The position numbers and the translations under genes were made by a program. A stretch of DNA of 64,000 nt. Source: Psammoneis japonica (Eukaryota). Every line of letters begins with the position of its first letter. The stretch's first letter is position 1. The notes below the pieces were generated by a model, which saw nothing but the letters and a program-made list of their open reading frames with translations, ran no database searches and had not been told where the DNA came from. This document shows positions 1-44,915 of the stretch, piece after piece. The DNA is taken from the NCBI GenBank assembly GCA_008632985.1, contig QPGO01000073.1, positions 310,001 through 374,000 on the forward strand, written 5' to 3'.

Positions 1-1855
1 AAGAGTGCAGCTCTGACACCCTCACTGAGGAGAAATGCCAATTGAAAAATTGACTCACAGCAAATCTGATGAATGACTGTTGTGTGCAGAGGAGTCGTGC
101 GCATCACTGGATGTCAGGAAGCCCAGACAAAAGGCCAAAGTGGCACACACTGGTCCACCAGCAGTCATTGCCTGCATGACACTTCTCCAGAAAAAGAGAA
201 AAATGAGCCTTTGTGTGTTCTGCTCAACAGCGGAACATTGTCGACCACAATTTTGCAGAAGTTTGTGTGAAAATTGAGAATGAAGAAATCTGCTGCCAAA
301 ACTTGGGAAACCAAGGGTGGGCTCTTCACAACTGACAGCTGCTGTTCAACTCAGTTCTCATTGCCTGAATTTGACAAGCATGAAAAGAATGAAGCCACTG
401 TGCATGTGGACATCAGCGCTGCTTCTTCATGTTGCTGTGATGTGGTCATGGGACATGACTTGATGTCCAGTCTTGGAATTGTCCTGGACTTTGTGAGTGA
501 AGAAATTGAATGGGAAGATGCCATGACCACACCCATGAAGAACCCAATGCCATTTTGGATGCCAAAGTGTTCGCACTGATGGCCAGTCACATTGAAGAAT
601 CTCATGCTGTGAAAAGTCTTGATGACAGGATTGACAAAATCCTTGCAGCGACTGTCATGCTGCCAACCTCAATGATGCAATGGCTGCTGCAACTCAGCCA
701 ACTCCAGTGGAGCAGAAACAACTGAACTTCCTCCTAAAAAGATTGGAGCCCTTTTTTGTGGTTCTCCAGGCAAATGGACAGGGAAACCAGCGCATCTCAA
801 GGTGAAGCTGGGTGCATGTCTGCATCACATGATGTCATTTCCCGTCCACAAGCCTTGGAGGCAACCACTTGCCAGGAGGTTGTGAGACCATGCAAGCCAA
901 AAGTGCTAAGAAAAATGACCATTTGAGTGGGCAGCTCCAACCTTTGTTCAACCCAAAAAATGGCCAAGTTTGGTTTCCACCCAACTTCCCTGAACTGAAC
1001 AGTGGTCAATGCATGCACTGCATCCTCTGCCAGATGTTCAGGACATGCATCAGAAGCCAGAAGGTTTCAGGTGTGCAAACTCACTTGATTTAAACATGGG
1101 ACACCATCATGTCAAGTTGGTGCCATTTGCACAGCACTTGCACAATTGTCATGTTGTGGGGCAAACATGAACATTGCAGACCACCCATGGACATTTGTGG
1201 AGCTCCAGACATCTTTCAGGGGGCACATGAGTGAGCTGATGGCAGGTCCAGAGTTTGTCAGGATGCGTGTTGACACCACATGCCATGCACTGAAAAAGGT
1301 GACTTCAAAAACCACCTCTCAACACAGATGATCTTCATGTCGCTCAAACAAGCTGGTGTCAAGCCACCAGAAGTTGACTGCTTGGGCTTTCACATCACCT
1401 GAAATGGCGTTGAGCCAATGCTTGAGAAAGTGGAGCAGATTTGCTCCATTGCAACTCCTGCAACTTGCAAGGAATTGCAGTGTTTCATTGGTGTGTCGTC
1501 AATTGCTTTTGGGGCATGTGGCCTGGACGGTCTCATGTGCTGCCCCTTGGCCAGACTTGGATGAGCACAGAACAAAAAGCCTTCAAAATGTGAAGTGCAC
1601 TGTGTCAAAATGTGTGCTGTTGTCATGCCCAAATTTCAACAAACCCTTTAAGACACACACGCTGATGCAAGCAGTGCTCAATTGGGGGTGGTTGTGACAC
1701 AAAACAACTGACCCATTGCCTTCTGCAGTTGCAAGTTAAATGCACCAGTGCAGATGCACTGCACTGCAACAGAAAAAGAACTTCTGTCCATGGTTGAAAC
1801 ACTTGAGGAATTCCAAAACATCCTGTTTGACGCGTTCCAGCCCTGGCAGGTGGGA
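1..1855 (+). mobile_element. Degenerate Ty3/Gypsy LTR-retrotransposon pol fragment (protease-RT-RNase H), hypermutated
   Basis: Protease-like VLLNSGTLST (LLDSG), WETKGGLFTT and CDVVMGHDLMSSLGIVLDF (YD..GRDL). RT motif SLDLNMGHHH (LDLNMGYYH) at ~1081. RNase H motifs PNFNKPF, PIAFCSCKLN (PIAFYSRKLN) and EKELLSMVETLEEFQNILF. Many frameshifts and stops. Confidence 0.9.
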
Positions 1856-2051
1856 GCTCGTAGTGCTGACGTGTGACACAAATAATTTTTGTCATCCGTC
1901 GTATGTTTCGCACGTGCATTTCTACGTGTGACATTAAAAAAAAATTGTCCAGACTCGCTGTTTTGCGAAGCCCCAGACGTTTTACATGACGAATTTATAG
2001 AAACAACAATGCGCCACAGTTACATTCTTCAATGTCTGAAGAATGTAACTG

Positions 2052-5000
2052 GCTGCTCAAGGCTGTCCCCTCAGTCCTGCCTTTTCCTGCCTTGTTTTGG
2101 CTCACGCATTCCACCCCATCAACGATGAATTGTGTCATTGACTTCCTCCCCATTCCAAATCCGCCACCTCCTTGTGCATCGACAATGCTCACATCTTCCT
2201 TCCTTTCTCCCAGCTCCCTTGGTTCCTCAAATGACTTTCTGCTTGCGGCCCCCAATTTGGTGTCAAGCTCAACGCCTCCAAGACCCAAATCCTCACATCC
2301 ATCACCGGCTCCTCTCCCATCAACCGCCTCCCACCCACCAATGCTGCCGCACTCTCCAAAGCCCTGGCCTTCCTAAATCCTCATGACAACCCCCACATCA
2401 CACCCGAAATCACCACCGGCACCCACTTCCTCAGTCAACCCATCGGCTTGCCCACTTTTGCCCTCGATTTCCTTCACGACAAGGCCACCTCCTTTGCCAC
2501 CAACCTTCGCTGTCTCACCGTCCACCTCACTGACAAACAAACACAAAGCACGCTCTTCCGCAAGTGCTCCATCCCCTCCATCACCCACCTGCTGTCCAGC
2601 AACGCATGTTGCAACCTCATGCACTCCGACAACCTTCCACCCCCTTTTCAATGGACATCCTCCTTTTCACCGACAAAATCATCGGCCACTCCCTGTGCTT
2701 CCTCACCTGCCTCACCCAACACACCAACCCGTTCCCATCTGCCACCAAACTCATTGCCACCCCACCCATCTCCCTGGGTGGCATCGGATGCCGAGATGTC
2801 TCCACTGTCTCCATCCCTGCTCTAATCACCTCCCTCATCAGATCCATCCGCCATGACAGAAATCAAAGAAGAGCTGGATTTCGGCAGCCAACCTTCACGA
2901 TGAACAAGAAAATGGTGAACAGCAGCAGCGATTAAACCAGCAGCACAAATGCCAATGGATCACTCCATTCCTCGCTCGGGGAATGGAAATCTGTCAGTGA
3001 CAATGGTGCATTCTGGTGCGAATTCCAAAGTGGGCTTGGGTTCGAGTCAACACCAACCGCGTGTCTTGGCCGTCTGGGTGTCTGTGCATCTGGGCGTGCC
3101 ATCGTGGGCACAAGACCAGGCACCTCCACCTGGCCAGACTGAAAACTGTTCCTGACCCTGGAACACATGTCCCCATTGTTCACAGGGGCACCTGCAATGG
3201 TCTCTGAGCGGAGACTCATCTGCTGTTTAGACAGCAGCAAGGTGTTGCACCAGGTCTGGGCCAGAGTTCTACTTGCCATGTCCACCTGACGTCATCAACG
3301 CTCGAATGACGGAGAAGAACAAGAGCGAGTCATTCTTGTTCAAATCCTGTCAGATTAACAATCTCGATGACACTCGCAAATGCGACGAGCTCTCATCGAG
3401 TGACGAGAACGTCGCAAGGACACAAGTGCACAAGTGGTGGCCAGCTTCGATTCTGGGGTCCATTTGACAGCGAAGCCAGAAGCCACTCAAGAGAAATGGA
3501 AGAATGACATTCACAGTGTCAGGTTGATGGGGAGTGACAGAAATCAAAGAAGAATTGGATTTTGGTGGTCAACCTTAACACCAACCGCGTGTCTTGGCCG
3601 TCTGGGTGTCTGTGCATCTGGGCGTGCCATCGTGGGCACAAGACCAGGCACCTCCACCTGGCCAGACTGAAAACTGTTCCTGACCCTGGAACACATGTCC
3701 TCATTGTTCACAGGGGCACCTGCAATGGTCTCTGAGCGGAGACTCATCTGCCATTTAGACAGCAGCAAGGTGTTGTGCTGGGTCTGGGCCAGAGTTCTGC
3801 TCACCGTGTCTACCTGACGTCATCAACGCTCGAATGATGGAGAAGAACAAGAGTGAGTCATTCTTGTTCAAATCCTGTCACGCTGCACCAAACATGGCAT
3901 TCCACTCACCGGTGGTGCCATCTTCCACCTTCCCTCAAGCTGCTCTGCCACTCTCAGTTCATGGTCCAACCCTCGCTCCACTCTCTCCCCTTTGCCGCAT
4001 CTTCCGTCACTGCGCTCCCACCCTTCTTAGACTTGATTCTTCCTCCTTCACTTCTCTCACACACGCTGTCAAACACCACAACCTGCGCGGTCTCGCACAG
4101 CGCCTTCACCTGCACCATCACAAGCACAACACTCCCCCCCAATCCTTGCTGATCCTTCCATTCAACCGGCGCTCCCATCCTTGTTGTCTCCGCTAACAAG
4201 CCCATGCCTTCACTCCCTGTCCCGCACTCCCACCTCCAACCGCCTTCCGCCTCATCTCTTCACGATCCTCCTCCTGCACAAGCTCCGTCTTCCAATTGTC
4301 CCACCCAACCTCTCCCAACACAACTGCCCATGCGGCCATGCTCACCCCAACCCATGCGTCAATCACACCTTTGCCTGCTCCAAAATGCACAAAGGCCCCT
4401 TTGCCAAATCACATCCGTGACACTGTCCACACCATCATCGAAACCGTTGGCCCTCTGTGCGGTCTCTGTCTTTCTCGCCAACAAGTCTACCTCAACCCTG
4501 CTGGACTCCTGCCCGACCACCCTCTCAAACGCCCTGCCAACATCAGTGTCCAACTCACTCCGGGCTCTGCACCACCAAATGCCCCATCCACCCATCAATT
4601 CTCAGCCATCGATGTCACCGTGCCGCCAGCTCCCCCGCCTCCTGCACCTGGTTTGCCTGTCCCTGAAAACCCACTGAACAAAGCTCACCTCAGCAGCACT
4701 CGGGACAAGCTCCTTGGCCATTCTACATCCTCTGCTCATGGCTCCGACGTCATTGATGCCATCAACCAAGTGGGCCTCTTCCTCCTCCCTTTTGCCTTCT
4801 GCCACCTCGGAGGCATTGGATGTCACTTCCACATCTTCTTCTTTGGTGCCTCCACCACCACCTCCTCCTCCATCCCACCCCTTCCTCCCAAACTGCCCTG
4901 GTCAAGCCCATCCTCTTTATCCAATTTGCAAGCATCTTTCTCCGCCTTCACCAACTCACTTCTGGCTCCTTCCAACCTCCTCTCTCGCCCAATCCAATGC

Positions 5001-5297
5001 GGCCTGGAAACAACTTTCACCGGACCACTTCGGCTCCTCTTGTCATGCTGCAACACCCCCACTCTGGGCCTCCCAAATCCTCAGTCTCAATTTTGGCTTT
5101 GCTCTCTCCAGCTACCTTTCCACATGTCAAGCTTTTCTCCTCCGTCATCACACCATCACCAACTCCTCCTCACAACCGTCTGTCCGTACCCTCGGCCAAC
5201 CCTTCTTTCTCTCCATCCCCCAGCGCGCTCCGCGCGCCTCTCCCACCACCTATTTCCCCAGCCCAACACCTACCAACCCCATAGACACCATAAACAA
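2052..5297 (+). mobile_element. 5'-truncated non-LTR retrotransposon with RT, Zn-knuckle and restriction-like endonuclease (CRE/R2-like), interrupted by an LTR mini-element
   Basis: AQGCPLSPAFSCLVL (QGxPLSP) at ~2055. CIDN at 2175-2186 in place of YxDD. GVKLNASKTQIL and FLSQPIG. C-terminal CPCG..NHTFAC..NHIRD and RPANI..AIDVTV (PD..D RLE motif). Strongly C-rich strand. Ends are approximate. Confidence 0.85.
2854..3880 (+). mobile_element. Non-autonomous LTR mini-element (TRIM-like): LTR1 2854-3352, 182-bp internal region, LTR2 3535-3880
   Basis: Both repeats start TGACAGAAATCAAAGAAGA and end CAAATCCTGTCA (TGACAG...CTGTCA inverted termini). Purine tract GATGGGGAG lies directly before LTR2. 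The 5-bp flanks CGCCA / CGCTG are a mutated TSD. LTR2 lacks ~150 bp present in LTR1. Confidence 0.85.
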
Positions 5298-5376
5298 GCC
5301 TCAAGTCACGGGTTGAACTTCGAAAAGAATCGAGCTCGTGTTCTGCGACGAAGGTGCCTTGACCCACAAGAAGACA

Positions 5377-8300
5377 ATGAATGGACATCGGCGAGCGAGC
5401 CTCGGGCGTCTCGATTTTTCGGTCGACCGTCGGCTGTGAGGAAGAGCAGGGGAAGTGAATCAACTTCGGGGTATCTTTGACCGAATATGCGAACCCGAAG
5501 CACCCGTTCAAGTGTGCATGGTACACGGCTTGTCTGGAACGGGCAAGACGAGGCTCTGTAAGGAATTGACAAAGCACGTTCCGATATTTTTGGAAGGAAA
5601 ATTCGATCAATACGTCGACTTTTCATCGCCGTATTCGGCCATCGTTCAGGCCCTTGATGGGCTCGGCAAAGCTTTGCTGCTCCGAGAAGAGGACGATAAA
5701 GACGTGGAAGATTTTCGAAATGCTCTTTCTCTTGAAGGAAAAGTCCTCACCCGGTTGATCCCCAGCTTTGCTCAGCTCGTGCTCAATGAGGACTTGTGTA
5801 AGTCTTCGTCGGGAAACCTCAACATGGCCTCCGAACGCCTTGCTGTCGCCTTGCGGGCCTTCTTGCGCACCTTCTGCACGCAATCACGTCCATTGGTTCT
5901 GTTTATTGATGATGTACAATGGGGTGATCTTAACTCATTGCAGCTGCTGTCAGCTGCGGTTGCAGATCAAGAAACATATCATCTTTTGCTGCTGATGGGC
6001 TACCGAGATGAGGAGTCGAGCAGGATAGACTCGTTTCTTTCGTCGCTACCGAGTTCGGTTCACAATGTTCCTGTTAAGAACTTGAACACTGAAGCTTTAA
6101 ACGATATGGTGGCGGAGATCGTGTCTCGAGATCCCGACGACACAAAGGAACTGGCTGATCTCATCCACCAAAAGACGTTTGGCAACCCATTCTACGCTAT
6201 TCAGTTTCTGGAAGGTCTACAATGCGACAAACTGCTCACGTTTGATATAATGTCTGTGCGATGGAACTGGAAGATGGAAGAGATACGTTCCCAAACAGTT
6301 GTATCCGAGAATGTTGCCGACTATGTGACAAGAAGAATTATAGAATTGGACTATAAAGTCCAGCAGGTCTTACAGCTGGCCGCTTGTTTGGGCTTTCTCG
6401 TGGACCTACAGCTACTGCGAGATTTGCACGACTCATCATCCGAGTTCTATCCCGAGAATCAAACACCTGACGAATCACAAAAGGAGAATGAAACGGCGAC
6501 GTTTGACTCTTCTATGTCCGTCGCACAAGAAGAGAATCTCGTTGAGACTACGGATTTCCAGTGCAGGTTTGCCCACGATCGGATACAGCAGTGCGCGTAT
6601 GAGCTCATCCCAGCCGGCGGACCCCGTGAGCGGCTACACTTTGCAATCGGGTCACACATTTCTCAGCTTGGTCAGGATCGGTTTGTCTTTTTGGCAGCAG
6701 ATCAGCTCAATCGCGGTTCAACGTGTATCAAGAGTGATGCAGACCGACTCGCACTCATTCAATTGAACATTGACGCAAGCAAAGCTGCCCAGAAGAGGGC
6801 TGGCGTCGTTCTGGTGGCACAGTTTCTCTCCCGAGCTGTAGATCTGGTTAAGAGTTCTGACTGGGACAGATCGTACGACCTTGTTCTGGACCTGTACTGT
6901 AGTCTTGCCGAGGTCGAGTCGACTCGGGGAAATTTTGACGCAAGCAACGATTTGGTTAACACTGTACTGAAAAGGTCAAAGTGCGATAACGACACAGTCC
7001 GGGTATTGTCAGCTCGGGCGAAGGCACATTTTTCGCGCCTAGATTGTCAAGCAGCTATCAGAGACTCACGAACGGCGTTGCGTCTTCTCGGTGTTCGCGT
7101 GCCACCGTCGAACTCCCTTTTGCTCTATGTGGAGCTGAAGAAGACGAAACGGCTTTTAGGAAGATTCTCAGATAATGATCTCCTCGAGCTGCCGCCAATG
7201 AGAGATGTAGGCAAGGAAAAGGCTGTGATGATCTGTCTCGATTGTGCTGTTTACGCCTGGAGCAATGACGATCCGATCACGTACGTGATGTTCTGTCTTG
7301 GAATGATGAAACTGTCTCTCCTCTATGGAAAGAGCGACGCAACTCCACAGGCGTTTGGTGCTTATGCTGAAGTGCTTGCTTTCATGGGCGAGAAATCGCA
7401 AGCCTTCCGGTTTTCGCAGCTGGCCTTGAATTCCATTGCTTCTCGCAAGGCCATTCCTCCTACATATGTGTCTGCTTATTGCTTCGTCAATCACGTGAAG
7501 CTACCTTGTGCTCTGAGCATCGAGCCCATGCTCACCGCGTATAGAATTGGAATCGAAACTGGGGACATGCTGTTTGGGTGTATCTGTTTGGCTTTCTACA
7601 GTGACTTCTATAAGTTCTGTGGACTGCCCTTGGCACGTTTGCGTCGGATTTGCGTCGCTTTGCGGGTCAGCTCAAGCTTTGCCGTCAGACACTCATGCTT
7701 AGTATGATGTTGCCAAACTACCAGCTAGCGTTGAATCTGTCTGGGCAGTCGGATGATAGTGTTGAGATTTCATGGGACGTGATCAAGGTGCACGGATTCA
7801 TCAGTGAGAATGACGCGGATTTTGAGAACAATAATGCTACTATCGTTATTGATTACAACCAGATGTTTAATGCCTATATTCTCGGGGAACTGGAAATTGC
7901 TCGAGAGGCTCTCGATCGGAGTCTTGAGCCGTAAAATCGGACAAAGGAGGTTCGAGGGGAATCACTTTCTCAATTATATGTTTAACTTCCTCGATGGTTT
8001 TGTTGGACGTGAACTCTACGCTGTAACAAAGAAGCGACGATATCAGAAGGTTGCCGAGCAAGCTCTGCGATGGCTGACAAAGACAAATACGGTCGACACT
8101 TTTCCGCTTCGGCGTCTTTGGAAGCCCAGAAGGTGTCATTGTGCCGTTCTGTTGATGGAGAGACTGCTAGACAAGGTTACAACGAAGCCATTGCTCTTTT
8201 GGCACGCGCGGGTTTCACTCATTACTGTGCAATTGCGAACGAGCAGATTGGAAAAGTCATGCTAGTTTTGTTGGACCACGAATGGGCGGAGCACTACCTC

Positions 8301-18249: not shown

Positions 18250-20650
18250 AAGCTGAAATTGACACACTCTAGAGATGTGCTGAGTCTCCTAGCCCATGGG
18301 TTGGCCTGTCATTGCTGCTGCAGTCATGCAGTGCAAGTTGAGTCTTCTGCTCTCACTTGTTTTGTGCTTGCGGCCGACACGTCGGCTCTGCGCTGGATGG
18401 ACGAAGAACAACATCTCGTGTGCAAAGTTTGGCTTGGATGTCGTGCAGCAAAACACCCCAGAGGACTGATGTCAGCACCCTCAGCACTGTCAAACTGGGT
18501 CAGTTTCTTCACTCACTTGCTGTCACTCATGTGTTGTCAGATTCCATGCAAGCCTTGCCATTGGCCTTCTTCAACACACTCGACATGCTGCTGTGGCAGC
18601 AGCCCTTGACCTTGCGGGGGAGGAGACCTCAGCATGACAGCCAGAATGCTGCAACATTCTCAGTGCATGTGCTTTGCCAATGTGAGTGACAAGCCAGCAC
18701 TCCCAAGCCTTGCTGATTTGGGTGTCAGCCCAATTTTTGATGCTCTTCAGCGATGACATTTGAGAAGTCATTTTTGCTGTGGCTCGGCACCCGTGTGCTG
18801 TGAGACACACAGACTGAGTCATTTCAGATCAGAGCAGCAATGGGCACCAGTCACTTCCCTTGTGGCGCTGTGTGAGCATGTGCCTGAGATCATGCAGCTT
18901 CAAGGACACCTGTCAAGGGGCTCTCTCTGCCCCCTTTGCACAGTGTGACACTGCCAAGGGCTGCCAGCACAGTGGCCAGGCAAGGTGTCAGCATGCAGAT
19001 TTTTCTTTGCAGAGCTTCTCAGCAAACATGTCTTGTTTGCAGCTGGGCATTGCAACAAGCTCTGGCGCACTGGAAATCATGTCCAAGCTCCTCCTTCCTC
19101 TGCCAAAGCCAAACTTTGGATGGAAGGCCCAGGGATGAAAAAACTGTGCCACACAGCATGACCAACATTGTTGTCCACATGTCCACAAAAACTTCAAGCT
19201 GCTTTTTTGCCATGTTCTGGGTGCCACTCCTTCTGGAGAGCTTGAGCTTTGCCAGCATCTCACAAAAATGCTTCAGACTGCACCTGTTGGGTGGTTCCTG
19301 TGGACAAAACCACAGTGTGGGCTGCACATGCAACCAAACATTTTTTGTTGGTGGCTTTCAAATCACGCTGAATTTTGTCATTGTGGTGCTGGCTCAGAGC
19401 AATGTTCAGCCCGCCGACTGGTTTTTTTCCTTCCCCAACCATTTGACCCAAACCAGTGCCGCCTGCCCAAAACAAAAAGACAAGCAGCAGCATGCCACAC
19501 ACACATTGACTGGAGAGCTTGAGCTTTGTCAGCATCTCATGAAACTGCACCAGATTTTGCACTTGTGAGGTGTTCCTGTGGATAAGATTGCAGCGTGGGC
19601 TGCACACACAACCAACCATTGTTGTGTTGGTGTCTTTCAAACAATGCGCTGCTGATTCTTGTGAGTGTGGTGCTGGCTCAGAGCACCGTTCAGCCCGCTG
19701 ACCATTTTTTTTTCTTTGGCAGCCATTTCACCCACACCAGTGCCCACCCACAACAAAACAACAAGCAGCAGCATGTCACACACATTGACTGGAGTTTTTG
19801 CCCCCCCCCTTCCGTCATCACAGAGTCAGGCTGCTCATGTCCACTTTGGCGGCATTTTGCAGCGGGGGAAGGGTGGTGTGCAAAATCTCAGCTGAGTGCC
19901 ACCCACCAGGCTGAAGAGAAAGAATGTCATGCCAAGATGCACTTGCTGCTAGAGACTGGCAGCACAGCATCCCAGAGCAGTGGCACAAGTGTTTGCAGAT
20001 GACTCTCTGTGGCCAGGACACCCAACATGATGCGGAGCTCTGCTGGCCAAGGGTGCAAGAACAAGCATGCACCAGGCACTGGTCAGCCTGCAGATGCCAT
20101 CACTCCAAAGTCACTGGGGTTGGTTTTGCTCTTTGAGGCCAAGTCACTCAAGCATGCTTCCAGCTGGTGGCTGCTTCATGAGCCAGAGCCAGCCAACGAA
20201 ACAAAGATGCACAGCTCGCGCGAGTTGTGGTTGCGCAGCTCTTTGGCTTGTGCCAGATCAAACAACTCTGTCAGAGACAGTGGCACAGTCCTGGCTCATG
20301 CTTTCCCAGCCAGTCATCTCCCCCTGTTTCTTTGCAAAGCCAGCGACAATGTTGGAGCAGGGGGCTCTCTGTTCTTGCAGCTTGCAAGCGCAGCTCTGGT
20401 CTCCTCTGCCCCCTGAATCCCAGCCAGCATTTTGACACTTTGCACACAGCCATTTGAAAAAAGCCTTTGCATCAACAACAATGCAAAAGCACTTGAGGAT
20501 CTTTGTGGACCTGTGTGATGCCAAGTGTCAACTGCCAAACGTGTGTGCACACGGGGCGTCAGCTGTTGGCTCTCCAGACACTCCCAGACAGCTCTGCTCC
20601 ACAACAAGAAGATGAGGTGCTGATTGTGCTTTGCAGTTTCTCAGGGAATC
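18250..20650. mobile_element. TA-depleted degenerate repeat/transposon relic with an internal ~280-bp tandem duplication
   Basis: Near-total TA loss and Tyr-free spurious ORFs in six frames. Duplicated unit ~19236-19512 / ~19513-19790. Weak hAT-like hints only; family unassigned. Confidence 0.6.
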
Positions 20651-21064
20651 TTCTTTTCCAATTTATGTTCAAGAAGGACATGGCATTTACCAAATGCATG
20701 AATCGAACCAAGCATTGCAATGTCAAATTGCTGGTGTGAGAGATGCCTCCACTTCCGCAAATCTCAGCCGCGACCAAGGCGTGACCACTCAGTCTGCGTC
20801 CGCGATCATCTCAATTTTTTTGGCCTTTGCACCTCCTTGGGAGTGGCCTTTGCACGACTGGCTTCCGCTCGGCTCAACGCTCGCCATGATGGCCGCACGA
20901 CGAACGACGAGAACATTCTCTCACTCGTGTTGCCGTCACTTCTTGTCACTCTCGCCGCCGTCACGATTCTTACAGTAGGCCTCAAAGCGCTATGCGTACG
21001 CTACACGTTCTTATTTTGTCTTCCCCATCTTTCCACAGTCTGCTCACACAATATTTTAAGAAGG

Positions 21065-22627
21065 ATGATCACGTGTCCGGTTTGTAAAAAGGTACACCAT
21101 GATCGTGACTGGTCAGACTGGTCTCCAGGCCTTTGCTCGCACGGAGCTTTAGTTGTATATACATCTGCGCAGTGCCCCATTTGTCTTGAAGAAGCCAAGC
21201 CTGTTGTGGCTATACCGTGTGGGCACCTGTTGTGTAAAACAGATTTTGGAAAGTTAGGCGGATGCGTTCGGCAACCTCGGAATGAAAGAAGTCCGGATGG
21301 AGCAACTAGCCGGGCACATGCCGGTATGCCGGTAGATCGATACAGAATCCCAGACTTTGAATCCGAGAGTGACGTTGGAGAAACTCGATTAGATAGAGTC
21401 CCAGAAGAGGGGTGGGATTTTGGAACAGCGGCTGCTGCCAGCGTTCTTGGCATACCCGGTCTCGGGCATTCAGAGAGGGATGACGGGTCTGAAACCACAG
21501 AAAGTGCCACGCAGTCATCTGACGCAACAAGCGACAGTGACGAATGGGATATGGAATCAGAGTTTAGTAGTGACTTGTCTGATGAGGTAGACTCGCTGGA
21601 TGATGATGCTACTCAGAGCACTACACATGACGAATCACTTCCACCGAGAGAGAACCCAAGAGAACTGCACATTACTCAAGGAGCGAGAAGACGGCTCAGA
21701 GGAGGAGCTTGGATGCTTGTACCGGAAGAAGGCAACGCAACAAAATGCACTCTCATATATCAGGTACACGGGATTTCTCACGTGATGGGTGACTTTGCAC
21801 ATGGCAGTAAGCTCGTTCCAGACGGGAAGTCAAACAGCGTACTAGTTTGTTCTCCGCTGAGCACAACCGTGGATGGAAAGAAGAAATGGGCTATTTATCA
21901 CGCCAACCTTGAACGAACTACTCTGATGCACGAGATGAGTTGTCCTTTGCAAATTGTATCCAATTTAAGTGCTGGAGTCTGGACGTTGCATCGGCAAGGT
22001 CAAGAAACGCTACTCTCGTTTTACAACCGTCACTATCTAGACGGAAAACAAATAGCCAAGGTTCCAGCATTATCCTACTTGATTGCAGACTGCATGGGTG
22101 GAGCTTGGGTTCATGCCAGGTATAACAATACAGACAGCACCGTGGAGGGAATGCTGCAGCCGGGTCTATGGCATATTACAACTCGACGAAAGGTCCAGAT
22201 CTTTGAGAGTATCTCGGGGAATGCAAAATGTGTATCGGACGGGCTGGGGGGCGTTTGGGTACTCATTGAAACCGAGCCCTTTCACAGTATGGTAAAATTA
22301 AGTCGTGATGGCGTTAAATCAGAGACAAGTGTCGCTGTTTACTCGAATGCAGCAAAGCTTGTCGGGGACGGTGCAGACGGCGTCTACATTCATGACTTAG
22401 TAGATCGTAAATGGAAGCTGTATCATTTGACAGAGGAAAATGGACCCAAAGAGGTTTGTGATTGTAAAAGAGATGCCAGAATCGTACCAGATGGAAACTG
22501 TGGTGTTTGGATCATGGAGAGAAGATCAAGGGAGGATTCATCGAGAGTACTGAGACATGTTACTCGAAACGGACATCTTGCCGAAGAAGCGGAATTCCCT
22601 GTAGGCACTATGCTGTCGGCATTATAG
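21065..22627 (+). CDS. RING-finger protein with acidic linker and repeat-built C-terminal domain (putative beta-propeller)
   Basis: CPICLEEAKPVVAIPCGHLLCKTD (C3HC4-like; the last CxxC is replaced by CKTD), a D/E/S-rich tract and six DGxGGxW-like repeats. The ORF extends to 20720, so the true start is uncertain. Confidence 0.75.
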   Translation: MITCPVCKKVHHDRDWSDWSPGLCSHGALVVYTSAQCPICLEEAKPVVAIPCGHLLCKTDFGKLGGCVRQPRNERSPDGATSRAHAGMPVDRYRIPDFESESDVGETRLDRVPEEGWDFGTAAAASVLGIPGLGHSERDDGSETTESATQSSDATSDSDEWDMESEFSSDLSDEVDSLDDDATQSTTHDESLPPRENPRELHITQGARRRLRGGAWMLVPEEGNATKCTLIYQVHGISHVMGDFAHGSKLVPDGKSNSVLVCSPLSTTVDGKKKWAIYHANLERTTLMHEMSCPLQIVSNLSAGVWTLHRQGQETLLSFYNRHYLDGKQIAKVPALSYLIADCMGGAWVHARYNNTDSTVEGMLQPGLWHITTRRKVQIFESISGNAKCVSDGLGGVWVLIETEPFHSMVKLSRDGVKSETSVAVYSNAAKLVGDGADGVYIHDLVDRKWKLYHLTEENGPKEVCDCKRDARIVPDGNCGVWIMERRSREDSSRVLRHVTRNGHLAEEAEFPVGTMLSAL

Positions 22628-26020: not shown

Positions 26021-27725
26021 TTTCATCTCGATTTTTCTCGGTAGCATCTAAAAGAACGTGTGATTGGTGGTCGTCCCCGACACAATTCCTCCAGTGCGTT
26101 GTTGCGGACATTGGATGCAGGATCGGTTCACTGCCGACAAGTCAGGGGTAGGAAACAAGAGCTTCCAGAAGTTTTCCCTCTACAGTACTCTTGAATTCTG
26201 CCGATTGATTTTGCGGCGGCAGTAGTGTTCGCCCTGCGTTACCCACATTATTCCAATGATCCAGTTGAGGATGGTTCCTCGATTTGCTCCTCCCTTTGAA
26301 ACACGGGGCTAAATGACTTAAGGCGCTATTGCCGTATGCTTGTTTACACATTGAACATGACTTGGCTGAACTCATTTTGTTTGTCCCTTAACCCATCTGG
26401 AGCGCGTGTTCCTCGCTGATGCTGTTGCGTCATCACCACTTTGACGATTCTGCAGCAGAGCACACTGGCGCGGGAAAACATTGCGCTTGCGGCCTGCGGC
26501 ACAACGCAACAAGGCCAGCAGTAACCGCTGCTCATGAGCTTTGTAACATTCGCAACAGCATGTGCCAAGAAGCCTGTAACACCTGTTTTTACATGTCCGG
26601 GACTCGTTGTTGATGTGTGTTGCACCACCACAAAACGCATGATGATGGATTCTGTCACCAACTGCAAGTGCTGCGGCACCTCATTTTTTTCCATTTTGCC
26701 TTTGATGATGCGTGCTGCCAGTGGCCAGCAGTTGACAGAAAGATGCGCAGCTTCACCAGCTTGGTGTGGTGGTTCTTTTGCAAGCACTCCAACTGTGTGC
26801 AATGGAAGCATGAAAAAACAGGGCCAGCTGCTTCAAAAAGGAGTTGTCAAAAAAAGCTCACAAAAGTGCATCAGAGGAGGAAATTTTGCAAAAAAGCATG
26901 GGAGGGTTGTGCAGCCAGCATCAGAGCTGTGCAACTGCTTGGCCAGCTTGTGCAAACAAAGAGCTGTGCAGCTGCAATCCCAAAAAACATTTTTCTTGCT
27001 TGTTTCTGGCATTGCAGGTCTTTCATGAACTGAAACAAGTGCCCCAAAAATCATGCCAACAACAATGCTGACAGCTCCTTGCATGTGCCTCTGTGCCACC
27101 AGCTGACACCACCAGGCAGATGGCTCTTGTGCAAGCAAGCCAAGGCAGCACAGAGCTGGCACCATGAAGTGATTGCTGCAAATGGCCACCCATCTGACAG
27201 TGCCTTTTTGCCACAAATGTTTTCTCACCTGCTGAAGGGCACACTGCACCCCAGTGCTCTTGACTTTGTTTGGTGTGTGTGAGTGTCCATCCAGTTTGCT
27301 TGTGATGCTGGGTCCTGCGAAGAGTGAACAAGAGAGAGAGAAAGCACCACTTTGCAGTGGTGCCACAAGAAAGAGCTCTTGTGTTTTTGTTGCAGCACAG
27401 CTGCACCAGCTTGCCACCAATGCATGCCACCACCTGCTGAACAAAGAAAGAAGATCTAGCCTGTGGGTCAAGCAGCAGATCATGTGGGTCAAAACAGGAG
27501 TCCCAAAAATCACAGCACAAGAAGAAGCAGTGGCCCATTGCACACTTGTTGAGTCCCGAGTGTTTGATGCAGGCGGGACCGACCAATCACTTCATGCCGG
27601 CGACCGGCAACCATCACATCGCACGGCGAACAAAAACAAAAAAGGTCAACAATGGCAATGACGAAGCCAAGCTGAAAGCATCCCATCCACTGAACAGATG
27701 CAGACACACATGCTTGCAATGAACA

Positions 27726-28556
27726 ATGATGGGACGCTTCAAGATTCTGTGTGTCTTTAATCCAGAAGATGCCTTTGGCTTTGTTTGCACCCATGACAAT
27801 GAGCAAGGATGTCCTGAGTTCATCGCTCTCAACACACCACGAAACAAGGCCAGCCGCATTGGCAGTGTCATGCACTTTTTGTCCAAACACATGATTGAAC
27901 ATGGCAATGCAGTTAGAAGCAATGGGTTGGATTTTCTAACCAAGCTGGTCAAAGGCAACCGCAAGGCAGAGCTCATGCGCACACATGCAACCATGACAAA
28001 CAAGAATGCGCAGCTGTTTGAGCTCCTTCCTTGGTTTGAGTTTGACCGGCTGGAGGACTGGGAAAGTCACGAACCTGCACCAAAAGGCCACGATGAGTTT
28101 GTGTGTTCCATGTCAGAAGTTTGGCAGACAAAAGGCAGCTTCATTTTGCACATTGATGGGGACAAATCGAGTTGTGCCTTGGTGAATTTGAAGCATGTTG
28201 ATTCAGCTGTTGCCTTGCAACATGTTGATGACTGGACAGTTGACTGGGACATGAATCTCATGTTGGAGCAGCAAGCATTTGTTTGCACCCATTCTCGACA
28301 CTTTGGCAAACTTGCCAAAGTTTGTTTTCGCGAGAAGAACATTTGTGCCTGTTGCAGCCTGATTGACAATGAAAAGTTGAGCAAGTGCAGGCAGTGCAAG
28401 CAAACTTTGCATTGTTGCCACAAACACCAGGCAGCCAACTGGCCTGCCCACAAAGGCAAGTGCAAACAGATGAAAAGCATGCGCGACAACAAGAACAAAC
28501 ATGGAGGCCGTCGATCCAACAACAAACAGGGTGACAAAAGCAAAATGAACAAATGA
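27726..28556 (+). pseudogene. MYND zinc-finger gene, hypermutated but still open
   Basis: CACC...KLSKCRQCKQTLHCCHKHQAANWPAHKGKC matches MYND (CxxC..CxxC..YC..Q..W..H..C) with Tyr positions replaced. The 276-aa ORF has no Tyr. Confidence 0.8.
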
Positions 28557-30502
28557 TTCTGATGAAAGTGGGGGTGGACAGAAGATTGCACAGTTCTGAC
28601 AAACAGACATTCCATGGGACCATTGTTGTGTCTCATTCAAATCAGAGAAGAACAGAGACCCTTCTCCAGATTCAAAAGTTGTGGGATCACTCTCCAAAAT
28701 GTGAGCAGAGCTGTGAGTTTTTTTCATTTCTTGGACACTTGCAATCCATCACTTCTGTTGGGATTTGTCATCATTGGGTCTTGGCAACAAACCCAATGGC
28801 AGAATTGATGTTTTCATTTCATTTGGTTTGCAAAAGTCTGGACCAACTGCAGGCATTTTGCTCATCGCGCACGAGGTTCCAATGTTTCAAGGAACATTCT
28901 GGTCTGATGAGCTTGTCACATTTTCTTGTGAGTTTCATGCGGATGCCCTCAAAACCCTGTGTTGTTGACAAGGGGATCACTCTGTGGGATCATTCCACTT
29001 CAATGCAGTCTCAACCAAGCCATCTGCATTTTGTGGGAGTGTTCGTTCTTCACAATGCAGCAGTCTCTTGCCATTCAGTCCGACCAGAAGAGATCTTGTC
29101 AAGACAAATCACACGGACACAAATGTTGACTCTAGAGAAAGATGCTGGCTCACAGGTGTGCATCAGTTTTCAACAATGTTGTTCTTGTGCGCCAACCTCC
29201 ACAGATGTTTCTCTGTCATTGCGCATCTCACACAAGCAGAGGACAACCAATTGCGGGAATGTGATGCTGCCAAGCTCTGCCACCATCATCATCCTGAATG
29301 AATTGCGCATCAAGCTGATGATGAAGATTGTGCTTGGCATGAATGTCAAAACCTGGAGCATGATCTGCAATGGGGAATGATGAGGTCTCCAACATGCAAA
29401 GCAAACAATGCAATGCTGAAGACTGGGCAGCAAGACTGGAGTGATGAAGGACGCGGCAGGGCCAAGGAAAAGAACACATCAATGAGATGGAGAAATTGAG
29501 GGCACCTGCAGCCATGGGTGTTTTGGCTCAATGATGCACCCGGTGGATCTTTTGCACCCAAGCATTGTCACAATGCTCATGTGACTTGTTTCTGTGAACA
29601 AACTTGAAGCCAACTGCAGCACTTCATGCACGCACATGACCCACCTTCATTTTTCTTCATGTTTCCCAGATTTGTGCAGCCCGTTGGTCTACGGCGTTTT
29701 CAGTGTGTGTTTTGCATGCATGATTTTCTGCACACTTCACAACAGTGCACCCTCTCCCCAAAGTTTGAAAAATGAGAGTGTGCACAGCCATGGCGGTGAA
29801 AGACTTTACCCCATTGGCCGATGACAGCAGCTCAATGCATGGTGAAGCCTGCCATCCTTCTGGTTGGTCAAGATGGGGTTTCGTTTGGGTGCAGCTTGAA
29901 TTTTGTGATCGCAAGTGTGCTGTCACGAATCCGCCGCATCCAGAATGCTGAGCTCTGGTGTGTTGTTGTGTGTTGTGTGCACGCACATCACAAACTTGCT
30001 TTTCTGCAGTGTTGGCATGATCGCGCACATCAGAGTTTTGCATCCAGAGTCATCACAAGTTGCCATAAATTGCACTGTTCAAACAAGGCATGTACAAAAA
30101 GAGGTTCATTGGTTTTTGATGCATTCGCCAACAACACATCCGTCTTCTCCAATTTCTGTGTCCAGATCCAGAAAGACTGCAGGCGGTGCTTGTTCCTGCA
30201 GCTCTCAGAATCACCATGTGAAAAGTTCTTTGCCACACATGAAACTCTTCAAAAAAGGCATGCACAAAAAGAGCTTCATTTGTTTTTGATGTGTTCACTT
30301 GTGTTGCATCCGTCTTCTCCAATTTCTACACCCAGATCCAGAAAGACTGCAGAGGTGGAGAGTGGGGAGGCAACCCATTTGAGGTTGCCTGAGTTGTTGG
30401 GCTCATTTTAAAAGGCTTCCCAAGTCTCTCCGCTGTTTGTGGTCAAGAGCAGGGGGGTCGACTACAACAACCTCAGCAGCTGCCAATTCCATGTCGATGG
30501 GT

Positions 30503-31000
30503 CGGGAACCAGCAGCAGAAGCTCCCAAATCGGCGGCGGTGGATGCACCTGCAAGTCCACATTGCGGTTTCAATTGGTTGCTGCTGTTGTCCTGCACACT
30601 CTCACAAAGCATTTTACATTTGTTTGCAATGAACAAGGTGGATCAGAGCAATGTCACTTCACCTGATCCAGAATCAGCTTTGCGGGGTCAGGAACCGGCA
30701 GCAGAAGCAACCGAATCTGCCACGGCGGATGCACCAGCAAGTCTGCGTTGCGGTTTTAATTGGTTGCTGTTGTCATCTCATGCACTCTCACAAAGTGTTT
30801 TGCACTTCTTTGCAGTGAATGAGGTGGATCAGAGCAGCGCCACTTCACCTGGTCCAGAATCAGCTTTGCGGGGTCAGGAACCGGCGGCAGAAGTGACCAA
30901 ATCGGTGGCAGCGGATGCACCTGCAAGTCTGCGTTGCGGCTTCAATTGGTTGCTGTTGTTGTCCCATGCACTCTCACAAAGTGTTTTTCACTTCTTTGCA
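30503..31000. repeat. Three tandem copies of a ~185-bp unit
   Basis: GGAACC(A/G)GC(A/G)GCAGAAG...GGATGCACC(T/A)GCAAGTC...AATTGGTTGCTG..CACTCTCACAAAG recurs at ~30503, ~30690 and ~30876. Confidence 0.9.
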
Positions 31001-33062
31001 ATGATTTGCCATTGTGAACAGAGTGTCACTCCTCGTTTGAAGGCGTTGCATTTGGATTGCTTGCCATGTCTCAGCATCAAGATTGTGCTCTCAACTGCAT
31101 GGCAGTGCAAGTGGAGTTCAAAGAGGTCCAAGCTTGTGCTCATGAAGGCAGTGGTGCACTCCACTTTTGCTGCAGTGAGCTCTAGCTCCGCCATTTTGTG
31201 CATCAGCTTTGCACCTTTCTTCTCTTGGAATTCAGTCGTTGCCTCTTTGAATTCATTGACAAGCCTTTGTTTCCGTCTGCGTCATTTAAATTAAGTGCAA
31301 ACAACAAAACAGAACGTTTGCAATGCAGGTGATTTTAAATTGCAGGTTTTGCAGGAATGGAGGGTGGGCACTCTCACAGGGAAAATGGTTGGCTGTTTCA
31401 CAGTGAATGGTGTTGCCTCGTGGGACAGTTGCGGGCTCCACAGCAATGAAGTTTGTCTTTCACAGTTGACAAATTGTCACCACGTACACAACCAATGAGG
31501 TTTGAAACCATGAAATTTTTAACTGTGACAGATTAAAAAATTCACTGTGAGAAAGTTGGTCTGATTGCCACATTGCATGCTCTGATGGAAGCCAGCATCA
31601 AGCAGCACAGAATGACCAGCTGCACCCCTTGTGAGAACAAGGGCCATGTGACAAAACCTGGCAGCATGGTTGTTGTCTCCAGTGCCACCCACATGGGCTG
31701 GATTGCACAACCATGAACAGACAAAGATGGCCTCTTGAGCTGGCAACTTCCCTTCTTGGTTTCCCACGTTCTTGGCTGCATTCTGATGCTGCTTTTTTGA
31801 CAGACGAGAGTGGCAGGAACCCCTCCTTGCACCTTTGAACTGCCAGAACAGAAGGAAGGGCAACCCATGGTGCCAGTGCGGATGTGTTGTTTGCACTGCA
31901 AAACAACACTGGACAACGCCAAAAGCAAAAACAAATTGTGAACAAAATTTTGCTGCAGTGACCCAACTGAAAAAAGGAAAAAATTGAAGCAAACAAACTT
32001 GTGCATTGAACAGGACATTGACACAATTGGTGCTGCAGGTTGAAATTGTTGCAGTCGTTGAAAAACAGCTTTGCTGTGGGGAAAAAAGAGGTGGCAATCA
32101 AAAGGCAAAAAAAACTGGCATCACACCCAAAAAGAGCAGGTGAATTTGCACAGGGCATCCATGTGGAGAACACATGGGAAGGATGCCTGCTGGGAGAAAT
32201 TGGGAGAATGTGTCTGTTTCACGCAGAAGAAGACAAATTAAATCCGCCAGAATTGTTGGTTGATTTTGACCATGCTGCAGGAGTCATGCAGGCCCCACTG
32301 GAGTTGTGGAAACAATGCAGGTTTGTCACATTAAATGAGGGTTGCCCTGCATTTGAGGAATGGATGCCCAATGGATCAATGCAAAGCACAAGCAGTGCAG
32401 CAACTGAAGCTTTGCCCATTTTCATGTTTGTGCAGCTCAACATGACAACCCAATGCTCCACAGAAAAGGAGGCACTTCAAAGACATGTGTGTGCTGTGCC
32501 TGTTGCCATCAAATTGCCACAATGCTGGGCTGCCATGCTGCTCTGCAGGAGGTGGCCAACCCAACAGCATGGCTGTTGAGTTGTGCAAAAATGTCATGGC
32601 TCCTTTTGAGAGTGCAACCCAGCACTGTCTGACTGAACAGGCAGGAGTGACCTCTCTCTGCACGCACACACACACCCTCTGGTGGGATGATCAACAAGAA
32701 GAACCTGCTCTGGGCAAAAACAGATTTGGAGATCTTCTTGTGCAAAGAGGCAGTGGTGAGATTAAACAAGAAGTGAACATGGCACCCGAAGCTTCCAAAC
32801 AATCGTCAGCTTGCAAAACAACACAAACATCGAATCGCAGGAACAAGCAGCAAATGTTCTTGAGCTCACCTTGAGGTGACAGAGCGAAAATCAATTTTTC
32901 TGACTGGACACTGGGGCCTGCCTGATTGTGGTGGGAGTCCATGTGGGCTGCAGCAGTGAGAATGAGGTGTCGTGTGTGCACAGCGTTCTGTCGTCGTCGA
33001 CGGGTCGTCATGATGTCGTCATCCGTTCGTTCAAGCGAGTCCCGAATGGACCAAACCATTTT

Positions 33063-39887: not shown

Positions 39888-40716
39888 ACGTTTGGTACTG
39901 AATCGCATCACTATTATTTGGACGAGGCCGTCAATGACCCTGTTGCTCTCTTTCACTTGTAAGATGTATTGTAACAAGCAGCGCTCCTCCGACAACCTCT
40001 TTTTTCTCGACAAATTCTGTTTGATCTCAACGAAAACGAATCGTAGATCGTGAGCACGCCTTTTTAAATATTAGCATAACTCCACTTCAATAACGGGAGC
40101 TACTTTCCGATACATGCTGTATGGACACCCCCAAAAGGACATTGACTTAGTTGGGAAAACATCCTATTCGTTTCGAGCCTGAGCATCCTGAAAAATTTTA
40201 AGAAGTGCTTCTTGGATCCTGAATTCAAGTAAAACACAGGAGCAAAAGTGTTATCGACATTGTAAGCGGTCGGATCTTTCAAATGGGAAGCTTATAATGC
40301 GTAGCTAAACGAGCTCTATCGAACAAAACAAGTTTCGATCTTCAGCGCAATGACTGGTTTGGATTCTACTGTAGCTGCGCTGCTCATTTCATAAAGTTGC
40401 ATCATTGTAGGCGCCATTTAGCATTGCTAGAGTCCTTAAAACCCCAGTTTGTCGTGGATGAGGTGCTTTCCTTGGAGGAATAGAGTGAGGAATAAGAGTG
40501 GCAGTGAATGAAACACCATTTATAATTGAGCTTAAGTCTAGTGTAGAAGTACCGTGCTCTATTACAGACTGTTCTGCTTTGAAATCTAATGTTTTTCCAT
40601 GAGAAACAAACCAATGCCACTCGAAGAACAACGTGGTATCTTTCTGTAGTGGAAAGAAAAATAAACCATCGGAAGGCAGGAACAAATCAGTAGGACCTTT
40701 TGCGTTTTCTTGGATT

Positions 40717-41472
40717 CTACTCTTGTTGTAAGTAGCCAAACAAGTCGGGTTTCGTTTGAAGCAGAGAAAATAGCAAACTTAGCCTACCCGGGGCTTTCTT
40801 GTGTCCAACTGTTGCAAACGCTTGTGCCCATAAACCAGGATGGGCGTTGTCGGCAGCCAACAACCGTTTCGCATGAGCTTCCATCAAGAACAACCTTACG
40901 GGTTCACAGGCTCTTCCGATTGCACAATTAATCGGCATGCGCCCCTTGTTGTCACTAGCATTCAAATTTGCGCCTTGTTCAATCAGCACACGTGCCACAT
41001 TTACATGCATGCCGATGCATGCGTTGTGCAGCGGGGTTCGTCCATCTCTGTTCACTGCGTTCAAATCAGCACCATTTTGTATGAAGAACTCTACAAGAGA
41101 TTCGTTCCCTACCATGGCAGCTTTATGCAGAGGCGTGGAGCCCCAGTCATCTCTAGAATCCACTTCAGCCCCGTGCGATAACAGCAATTGTGCTTTGGAT
41201 GCGGGTCTGCGCACGGGAAGGGAGCAACAAGCAATTTTATGCAGCGGCGTAAAACCCCACTGTGTCGAAACCTGATTCACATCAGCACCGCATTCCAGAA
41301 TTAGCTCTAACATGGCGTCTTCTCGGACTCTGAGAGCTAAAAATATTGGAGATTCTCGCAAGCCACGTCCTGACAGCGTTGCGTTCACGTCCTGTCCTGC
41401 ATCAAGGATGCTTCGAGCTTGATCCACCTCTCCCCCTTGAATGGCATTAAAAAAAGCATCAGAACTAGCCAT
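40717..41472 (-). CDS. Ankyrin-repeat protein, copy 1
   Basis: MASSDAFF... with repeats GFTPLH, GSTPLHKAA and GRTPLHNAC; open frame. Confidence 0.92.
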   Translation of the reverse strand: MASSDAFFNAIQGGEVDQARSILDAGQDVNATLSGRGLRESPIFLALRVREDAMLELILECGADVNQVSTQWGFTPLHKIACCSLPVRRPASKAQLLLSHGAEVDSRDDWGSTPLHKAAMVGNESLVEFFIQNGADLNAVNRDGRTPLHNACIGMHVNVARVLIEQGANLNASDNKGRMPINCAIGRACEPVRLFLMEAHAKRLLAADNAHPGLWAQAFATVGHKKAPGRLSLLFSLLQTKPDLFGYLQQE

Positions 41473-44799: not shown

Positions 44800-44915
44800 C
44801 GTGATTGCCGGTGCGCTCGAGACGGACGTTCCGGGCGCATCGAAAAGTGGTTGCACGTCAGTCTGTGTAGTCAACGAAGGCATTCATCGTGCAAACATTG
44901 GAGAAAAAGCAAAAA
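44800..44915 (+). pseudogene. Duplicated fragment of the HAD gene 3' exon (39657-39770)
   Basis: GCGCTCGAGACGGACGT..GGGCGCATCGAAAA.TGGTTGCACGTC..GTAGTCAACGA.GGCATTCAT is shared with 39669-39743. Confidence 0.85.

Follow-up and report, generated by a model that had tools for sequence, protein, structure and literature searches.

The 64,000-nucleotide window of the Psammoneis japonica genome analyzed herein (NCBI GenBank assembly GCA_008632985.1, contig QPGO01000073.1, positions 310,001 to 374,000 of the forward strand; all coordinates below are counted from its first letter) carries eukaryotic genes, including those for phosphoenolpyruvate carboxylase, ankyrin-repeat proteins, a STAND ATPase, and an SPX-MFS protein, and the nearest named relatives of one of the encoded proteins were found in diatoms with 50-60% identity. 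Near the left end of the window, at 2854-3880, lies a short element bounded by two long terminal repeats (LTRs), which differ from each other almost only at TA, CG, TG, and CA dinucleotides. The element is embedded in one of six blocks that are strongly depleted in TA and CG, and the comparisons described below, which involve the LTRs, tandem repeats, and ankyrin paralogs of the window, well supported an in-place, block-restricted conversion of both TpA and CpG to TpG/CpA.

Architecture of the LTR element

A repeat search and blastn identified two pairs of direct repeats, 3049-3352 vs 3577-3880 (304 bp, 95.4% identity) and 2854-2898 vs 3535-3579 (45 bp, 84% identity), which belong to a 5' LTR of 499 bp at 2854-3352 and a 3' LTR of 346 bp at 3535-3880, both on the plus strand. 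Each LTR starts with TGACAG and ends with CTGTCA, forming 6-bp inverted repeats of the TG..CA type. The element is flanked by the pentamers CGCCA (2849-2853) and CGCTG (3881-3885), a possible target-site duplication in which 3/5 bases are identical and the remaining two represent a CA vs TG swap (the chance of such a pair being 0.016). In addition, five contigs from a public run (hereafter X1) linked the interior end at 3534 to the LTR start at 2854/2855, a junction common to other copies. The terminal motifs, the pentamers, and these contigs were all in good agreement with a preliminary description of the window, made from its letters alone, which had regarded the two repeats as the LTRs of one element.

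The difference in length between the LTRs, which that description did not mention, arises from a 150-bp segment at 2899-3048 (+) that is present in the 5' copy only and appears as a gap in the LTR alignment. Since other family contigs carry this segment (variant rows with 4-13 contigs, while one contig skips from 2895 to 3049), the difference was attributed to a deletion in the 3' LTR. The interior at 3353-3534 (+) spans 182 bp without a gene, and only its last 6 nt, GGGGAG at 3529-3534, form a short purine run immediately upstream of the 3' LTR. No primer-binding site was recognized after the 5' LTR; the start of the interior was not complementary to a tRNA end, and a tRNA scan of the window returned 0 genes for comparison. 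A Pfam search of the open reading frames (ORFs) of at least 90 aa scanned there, including two overlapping the element, gave 0 matches, and neither gag nor pol lies between the LTRs. Because the interior is 182 bp long and lacks a Pfam match, the element was called non-autonomous. An Rfam scan of 2000-5500 at E ≤ 1 gave 0 matches, a blastn search detected no second copy of the element within the 64-kb window, and exact-pattern scans of metagenome and viral contigs with two LTR stretches likewise gave 0 matches.

Judging from these sequence features, 2854-3880 looks like a small non-autonomous LTR retroelement, miniature or internally deleted, of a multi-copy family. It has in common with terminal-repeat retrotransposons in miniature and with internally deleted LTR elements the TG..CA ends, the short non-coding interior, the purine run before the 3' LTR, and the multi-copy family, while it differs from both in the absence of a recognized primer-binding site and in the imperfect target-site duplication, and the window yielded no autonomous partner.

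Two further observations concern the surroundings and the inside of the element. The flanks at 2000-2853 and 3881-5300 are strongly strand-asymmetric, with C at 0.42-0.44 and G at 0.13 on the plus strand and 67% pyrimidines, an asymmetry that could not arise from transitions alone. The flank is also multi-copy, being represented in about 10 contigs with a depth of ~660 at 2774. Within the LTR, a module of ~60 bp at 3187-3247 was more than 1000-fold more abundant in run X1 than the rest of the element, as its summed contig depth reached 1e5-6e5 vs ~36 for single-copy DNA, and 23 contigs had loose ends at 3187 and 23 at 3247. This module, which was also present in a small run (X3), contains two short hairpins and gave no match in Rfam; it could represent either a mobile module of great abundance or part of a satellite.

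Differences between the LTRs and their family context

The base-by-base comparison of the 304-bp LTR part revealed 14 differing bases at 10 sites, all of which were transitions. Thirteen of them fell in pyrimidine-purine (YpR) steps, namely TA, CG, TG, or CA, with position 3173 (CC vs TC) as the sole exception. The preliminary description had counted the same 10 sites, with 9 at these dinucleotides, and every sequence pair that it had quoted as an example was present in the comparison. Four sites were TG-vs-CA doubles (3224/5, 3248/9, 3251/2, and 3274/5), and the single YpR sites comprised TA/TG at 3271, CA/CG at 3278, CA/TA at 3283, and CG/TG at both 3310 and 3326. YpR steps cover 49% of the positions in the 304-bp part, and 200,000 draws in which 14 changes were distributed over it by chance gave a probability of 0.0006 for at least 13/14 changes in YpR steps and of 0.0018 for at least four adjacent pairs. 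Six further transitions, of which three were in YpR steps and which included a fifth CA/TG double at 2885/6, were found in the first 42 aligned positions of the LTRs, as was one C/A transversion at the edge of the 150-bp indel. As to the distribution over the two copies, the 5' LTR had C and the 3' LTR had T at 10/12 of the C/T differences, and the 5' LTR had A at 5/8 of the G/A differences; this skew may reflect strand-biased hits in each copy.

The differences were also strongly clustered, a feature that went unmentioned in the preliminary description. Of the 14 differing bases in the 304-bp part, 11 lie within the 60 bp at 3224-3283 (+; partner 3752-3811), and no LTR difference occurs within 3049-3172. 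Under random placement, the probability of at least 11 changes within 60 bp was 4e-5, and when the draws were restricted to the 75 YpR steps, the observed concentration of 7/9 struck steps within 60 bp still had a probability of 0.0035.

A census of the YpR steps in the aligned LTRs gave 9 CG/CG, 4 CG/TG or CA/CG, 5 CA/TG, 1 TA/TA, and 2 TA/TG or CA/TA. A one-rate model allowing hits at CpG only, fitted to the 9 intact and 4 singly struck CpGs (p = 0.18), predicted 0.22 visible doubles vs the 5 seen in 346 aligned bp (P = 3.8e-6). A model with both CpG and TpA as sources improved the log-likelihood by 3.65 with N_TA = 12 and p_TA = 0.84, and this number of original TA steps is near the 10.9 that a stretch of 346 bp would be expected to have if its TA level were that of normal DNA. 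The model fit thus favors a contribution of TA to the LTR doubles, although the sites are few and a class of very hot CpGs would fit as well.

The family to which the element belongs offered a means of polarizing the differences, as 522 contigs of run X1 matched it at a likeness of at least 80% (single-copy depth ~36). Polarity was taken from 40 of 205 variant rows of this one run, so that the family consensus is partial; at LTR sites outside these rows, the letter of the 5' LTR was regarded as the family majority, as all of the rows listed have a share of at least 46%, on the assumption that the rows are ordered by share. The five LTR-differing places among the rows listed were all polymorphic in the family, with shares of 46-88%. 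At 3271, the family had G in 88% of the depth (14 contigs), that is, a TG majority, and the TA of the 5' LTR looked derived (TG>TA). The family majority was G at 3278 (68%, that is, CG), T at 3326 (57%), and T at 2888 (67%). At 3224/5, C amounted to 46% and A to 54%, which forces TG to equal CA and places TA above CG by 8% of the depth, whereas at 3007/8 and 3401/2, other TG/CA-polymorphic places of the family, C exceeded A by 8% and 13% of the depth and CG persists. At 2957, 3068, 3442, and 3488, TA made up roughly 50% or more of the depth in the family at places where the element studied here has TG or CA.

The preliminary description had taken the TA/TG and CA/TA pairs as direct evidence for TA and had proposed to infer the ancestral dinucleotides by alignment with other copies of the family. 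In the partial alignment provided by the run X1 contigs, the claim did not stand: the only TA-containing site that was polarized, 3271, had TG and not TA as the family majority, which at this one site is the outcome that the description itself had named as a refutation, and 3283 was not among the rows listed. As to its reading of the TG-vs-CA doubles as independent hits on opposite strands of a palindromic TA or CG, the LTR pair alone cannot say which of the two was the source. From the sequences of the LTR sites alone, neither a TA ancestry nor the choice between CG and TA for the doubles is thus established, and we regard the LTR pair by itself as modest evidence.

The family data also bear on the possibility that decay of methylated CpG alone shaped the LTRs, in which case the TG/CA doubles would be CpGs struck in both copies and the TA sites would be ordinary C>T or G>A changes. 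Diatom transposons are indeed methylated (PMC9998398), and the CG observed/expected ratio (o/e) of 0.55 in the element, the four sites with a single CG/TG or CG/CA change, the CG majority at 3278, the TG majority at 3271, and the CG persisting at 3007/8 and 3401/2 are all in line with it; moreover, all of the single changes run from GC to AT under the family polarity. However, the doubles exceed the expectation of the CpG-only model as described above; even its best fit was 3.65 log units worse than that of CpG plus TpA, and it requires a class of very hot CpGs beside nine untouched ones. Considering also that it leaves unexplained the TA o/e of 0.12 in the element, the TA depletion of the surrounding blocks, and the TA losses in the ankyrin paralogs (see below), we consider this explanation rather unlikely.

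Gene conversion or recombination with other family copies could account for the clustering, if the patches 2873-2888 and 3224-3283 had been copied from a diverged relative and the differences were old polymorphisms of the family. The dense 60-bp cluster beside the unchanged 3049-3172, the polymorphic state of the five LTR-differing places listed, and the large number of copies speak for such an exchange, but recurrent hits at hypermutable sites would also yield shared polymorphic places. Furthermore, when the rows are assumed to be ordered by share, the derived states alternate between the LTRs (3' at 3248-52, 5' at 3271, 3' at 3274/5, and 5' at 3278), unlike a single tract from a consensus-like donor. 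The pentamers outside the LTRs carry the same CA/TG swap, and the same signature is shared by the tandem repeats and gene paralogs described below. An origin of the differences by gene conversion therefore appears improbable.

An artefact of sequencing or assembly at modified bases would be harder still to reconcile with the data. A run X1 contig of depth 36 was identical to the window over 2700-2843 with 0 differences, and 57% of the sampled 31-mers of 2700-4050 were found in this run (almost none of the stretch was present in runs X2 and X3). A systematic base-calling error would not read the same context as TG in one LTR and as CA in the other, as is the case here, and the eroded ankyrin paralogs carry indels and other substitutions too. 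The probability of such an artefact seems close to negligible. As a local feature, the TG form at 3224/5 was seen by eye to complete a 7-bp hairpin. A template switch at quasi-palindromes, considered by eye only as a source of the TG/CA doubles, was rejected on the ground that it cannot account for the window-wide pattern.

TA- and CG-depleted blocks and the direction of change

Among the 64 bins of 1 kb in the window, those with a TA o/e below 0.25 were defined as TA-depleted. The 25 depleted bins showed a mean TA o/e of 0.08, CG o/e of 0.33, TG/CA o/e of 1.77, and GC content of 0.493, vs 0.55, 0.99, 1.20, and 0.47, respectively, in the other 39 bins. TA and CG varied together across the bins (Spearman 0.74, p = 4e-12), the depleted kilobases had as few as 0-3 TA, with 0 TA in 28001-29000, and the block edges were sharp at 1-kb resolution. 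Segmentation of the window yielded six depleted blocks covering 23.8 kb of the 64 kb (~37%). The first block, 1-5071, whose left end lies beyond the window, contains the LTR element, the composition of which (TA o/e 0.12, CG o/e 0.55) was like that of its block; its part at 2197-5071 has 14 TA, 102 CG, 201 TG, and 329 CA, and its part at 1-1702 has 4 TA and 15 CG. The others were located at 18341-20791 (4 TA and 42 CG, containing a 284-bp tandem repeat), 26590-32918 (three adjoining segments, containing a 186-bp tandem repeat), 42110-43631 (between two normal ankyrin genes), 45827-54169 (three segments, containing two eroded ankyrin copies), and 57068-58436.

The two tandem repeats exhibited the same type of difference as the LTRs. 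CA/TG accounted for 8/15 adjacent double differences in the repeat at 30499-31004 (186 bp x 2.7) and for 6/17 in that at 19233-19794 (284 bp x 2.0), being the commonest type in both, and each repeat retained 1-2 TA. The depletion was confined to particular dinucleotides: AA, TT, and AT were not depleted in the blocks. GC-biased gene conversion was rejected on the basis of this observation together with the similar GC contents (0.49 vs 0.47). The surviving TA in the depleted bins were mostly in a YTAR context (TTAA 29, TTAG 13, and CTAA 13 of 122), whereas RTAY was nearly erased, with ATAT 0 (98 in normal DNA), ATAC 1, GTAT 2, and GTAC 4, vs 92-121 each in normal DNA. Such retention of YTAR and loss of RTAY may represent a tetranucleotide preference of the TA-removing process.

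It is conceivable that a genome-wide neutral bias acts against TA and CG, that purifying selection retains them in genes, and that the blocks are simply non-functional DNA. In support of this, the Pfam search of 132/133 ORFs of at least 90 aa overlapping the blocks (the ORF 20702-22624 was scanned separately) gave only two matches, a marginal MYND finger and an eroded ankyrin copy; the ankyrin cluster has normal genes and depleted spacers; and even normal DNA has a low TA o/e of 0.55. Nevertheless, ORF-free segments in normal DNA had a TA o/e of 0.62-0.70 and a CG o/e of 0.97-0.99 (in such segments of 650-850 bp, TA was at 0.55-0.9 of expectation and CG near 1), and TA at the codon junction 3-1 in 20 long ORFs was 0.44, not 0.08. 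The depletion is therefore not the default state of non-coding DNA, and, with the sharp block edges also at odds with it, a neutral bias of this kind is very unlikely to explain the blocks.

The direction of change was assessed in a cluster at 40349-55628, which comprises five ankyrin-repeat paralogs in the same orientation with block edges between neighboring copies. Three copies reside in normal DNA (40600-41560, 44775-45760, and 54650-55610, all on the minus strand), keep long minus-strand ORFs, and served as outgroups. The two eroded copies at 47290-48100 and 49760-50700 reside in depleted DNA, and 50050-50571 (-) was still recognizable as ankyrin (E = 1e-19). CG dinucleotides common to the three normal copies were kept at 10/29 in 49760-50700 and 0/20 in 47290-48100, and had become TG/CA at 15/29 and 15/20, respectively. 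Similarly, TA dinucleotides common to the three normal copies were kept at 2/8 and 0/5, and had become CA/TG in 6 and 4 cases, a total of 10/13. In the controls, where each normal copy was compared with the other two, TA was kept at 8/11, 8/11, and 8/12, and CG at 29/34, 29/33, and 29/35. In strand-symmetrized counts, A>G occurred at 10/25 TpA vs 21/292 other A (odds ratio 8.6, p = 2e-5), and C>T at 25/79 CpG vs 33/259 elsewhere (odds ratio 3.2, p = 3e-4). The eroded copies additionally carried indels and other substitutions. With both eroded copies pooled, CG>TG exceeded CG>CA on the plus strand (21 vs 9), which suggests a strand bias in the CpG arm.

The paralogs also threw light on the origin of the doubles. 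Of 43 columns in which any two copies showed TG vs CA, another copy had CG in 11, TA in 9, both in 2, and neither in 21. In one column, where every normal copy had TA, one of the eroded copies read TG and the second one CA, and the next such column showed the same from CG. Since TA>TG/CA and CG>TG/CA are both seen among the paralogs, a TG-vs-CA pair can therefore come from either source. In these respects the preliminary description fared better than at the LTRs: its interpretation of the doubles as hits on TA or CG was traceable in the paralog columns, and its notion of TA as a direct target, which the LTR TA pairs did not show, was borne out by the 10/13 conversions. Its proposal that the mutations occurred in place after integration, rather than as retroelement codon bias, is the best reading, as the same signature appears in tandem repeats and in paralogous genes, neither of which went through an RNA stage.

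The data are also unfavorable to a process like repeat-induced point mutation (RIP; C>T at CpA/CpG in duplicated DNA) or to RNA-level editing during retrotransposition. Either would be consistent with the exclusive transitions in the 304-bp LTR part and with the 10/12 skew of C/T differences, and RID-related DNMT4 genes of unknown function are widespread in diatoms (PMC9998398). RIP, however, raises TpA, which is nearly erased in the blocks (o/e 0.08), and the ankyrin paralogs that are 77-82% identical to each other were unaffected, while RNA editing would leave the LTRs of one insertion identical to each other and cannot act on tandem repeats or gene paralogs. Both processes are thus highly improbable as the source of the pattern.

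Several side observations were made on the coding content of the blocks. The TA-poor blocks, being without TAA/TAG stops, contain long overlapping ORFs in several frames and on both strands (4197-5480, 26836-29377, and 47390-48277) with no Pfam match, and these ORFs are probably spurious and a trap for gene prediction. Upstream of the LTR element, frame-shifted fragments resembling retrotransposon pol extend over 270-1900 (+) and represent an older eroded element; only 1712-1876 (+) reached a Pfam match, a decayed remnant of the RNase H-like domain of reverse transcriptases (PF17919, RT_RNaseH_2; E = 2.1e-5 and 24.9 bits, the curated cut-off being 29.8). This remnant was all that the pol-like ORFs yielded when scanned permissively, and no usable match came from PDB sequence searches with two fragments of pol. 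Inside the first block, a TA island at 1649-2046 has 12 TA in ~400 bp, which is a normal density, and adjoins a palindromic match of 35 bp (2017-2051); the island may represent a more recent insertion or the edge of a block.

Proposed mechanism and comparison with known systems

Taken together, the LTR pattern is probably explained by block-restricted erosion of both TpA and CpG. The element sits in an eroded block of at least 5 kb, in which a transition process would turn the self-complementary YpR dinucleotides TpA and CpG into TpG/CpA on either strand. The LTRs would have been identical at insertion, and each copy would then have been struck independently, so that a former CG or TA site struck in both copies could read TG in one and CA in the other, and a site struck in one copy only would appear as CG/TG, CG/CA, TA/TG, or TA/CA. 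On this model, roughly half of the LTR TG/CA doubles may have started as TA. By analogy with diatom transposons, which are methylated through DNMT5a and lose the methylation upon DNMT5a loss (PMC9998398), the CpG arm could be deamination of 5-methylcytosine in silenced, methylated DNA. The TpA arm may be of the same kind as the TpA-only A:T>G:C hypermutation of Bigelowiella natans (Mettrop et al., bioRxiv 10.64898/2026.01.13.699255), and would then probably be an enzymatic deamination of adenine on DNA. More speculatively, a single chemistry might serve both arms, such as a dual A/C deaminase or the oxidation of two 5-methylpyrimidines, i.e., thymine in TpA and 5-methylcytosine in CpG.

Several observations weigh against this explanation. 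At the sole TA-containing LTR site that could be polarized (3271), the family majority is G and TA is derived, and because of this and the majorities at 3278 (CG) and 3326 (T), several LTR sites are explicable as ordinary GC>AT changes. Among the variant rows listed, 3007/8 and 3401/2 point to a CG source, and only 3224/5 leans to TA, by 8%. A uniform in-place process predicts no clustering, and the LTR differences are clustered even among the YpR steps. Nine CpGs are intact in both LTRs, so that the CpG arm must have been slow or patchy there, and the paralog test includes few TA (13 sites). In addition, run X1 may be the window's own assembly data, so that its agreement with the window provides no independent proof against an artefact.

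Beyond the LTR pattern, we tentatively envisage, at somewhat below even odds, a DNA-editing defence of diatoms that is targeted to blocks and erases TpA and CpG, preferentially in RTAY contexts, from silenced, repeated, or foreign DNA. It could be an ancient system shared with Bigelowiella across SAR (stramenopiles, alveolates, and Rhizaria) or a single chemistry acting on 5-methylpyrimidines, and the LTR pair, the tandem repeats, and the eroded ankyrin copies would be its footprints. If the TpA arm is real, a second and distantly related algal lineage would show TpA-specific hypermutation of selected genome blocks, and a single-species curiosity would become a candidate for a widespread eukaryotic genome defence. 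The diatom case would add near-total erasure, which makes the targets easy to map from sequence alone, a coupling to CpG loss, which provides a link to silencing and methylation, and the RTAY-lost/YTAR-kept preference, which constrains the enzyme. There are also practical consequences, in that LTR-divergence dating in such genomes would be badly inflated by YpR hits, and TA-free blocks lacking TAA/TAG stops give spurious long ORFs in all frames, as exemplified by 4197-5480.

Among known systems, the decay of methylated CpG in silenced transposons of vertebrates and plants resembles the CpG arm in the CG deficit with a matching TG/CA excess in repeats and the raised C>T at CpG, as well as in TG-vs-CA pairs that arise from independent hits on the two strands. 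In contrast to the present case, however, it spares TpA, which was here lost more fully than CpG (0.08 vs 0.33 o/e). Fungal repeat-induced point mutation, the subject of the RIPCAL paper (PMC2621366), is likewise a defence-like process whose context-specific transitions mark repeats and leave a dinucleotide scar, but it converts CpA to TpA and enriches TA, whereas TA was removed here and diverged repeats outside the blocks remained untouched.

In the literature searched, neither TpA depletion nor TpA hypermutation in diatoms was the subject of any paper, and the only algal report was the 2026 preprint on Bigelowiella natans. According to its text, two integrated viral regions mutate ~1000-fold faster, the changes are almost only A>G/T>C and all at TpA, clusters of 1-kb windows poor in TpA and rich in CpA + TpG occur elsewhere in the genome, and an ADAT2-like adenine deaminase is proposed as the enzyme; the text contains neither "CpG" nor "diatom". 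The two cases share the conversion of TpA to TpG/CpA on either strand, the confinement to particular regions, and the largely unannotatable nature of the affected DNA, with reverse-transcriptase domains among the few matches. They differ in the host, a chlorarachniophyte (rhizarian) there and a diatom (stramenopile) here, and in depth, as the erosion in the diatom blocks, with whole kilobases of 0-3 TA and ~37% of the window affected, goes far beyond that described in the preprint. Unlike the almost exclusive AT>GC changes reported there, the same blocks here also lost CpG to TpG/CpA, which would imply a second process or a broader variant, and unlike the viral regions, they hold a pol remnant, an LTR element, tandem repeats, and host-derived ankyrin copies, with no viral genes recognized among the 132 ORFs scanned. 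The survival of TA mostly as YTAR, with RTAY nearly gone, has no reported counterpart in the preprint, and the rates in Bigelowiella natans were measured in mutation-accumulation lines, whereas the diatom blocks are known from their sequence. With these differences in view, the closest known case for the diatom blocks is the TpA-only hypermutation of Bigelowiella natans combined with ordinary decay of methylated CpG.

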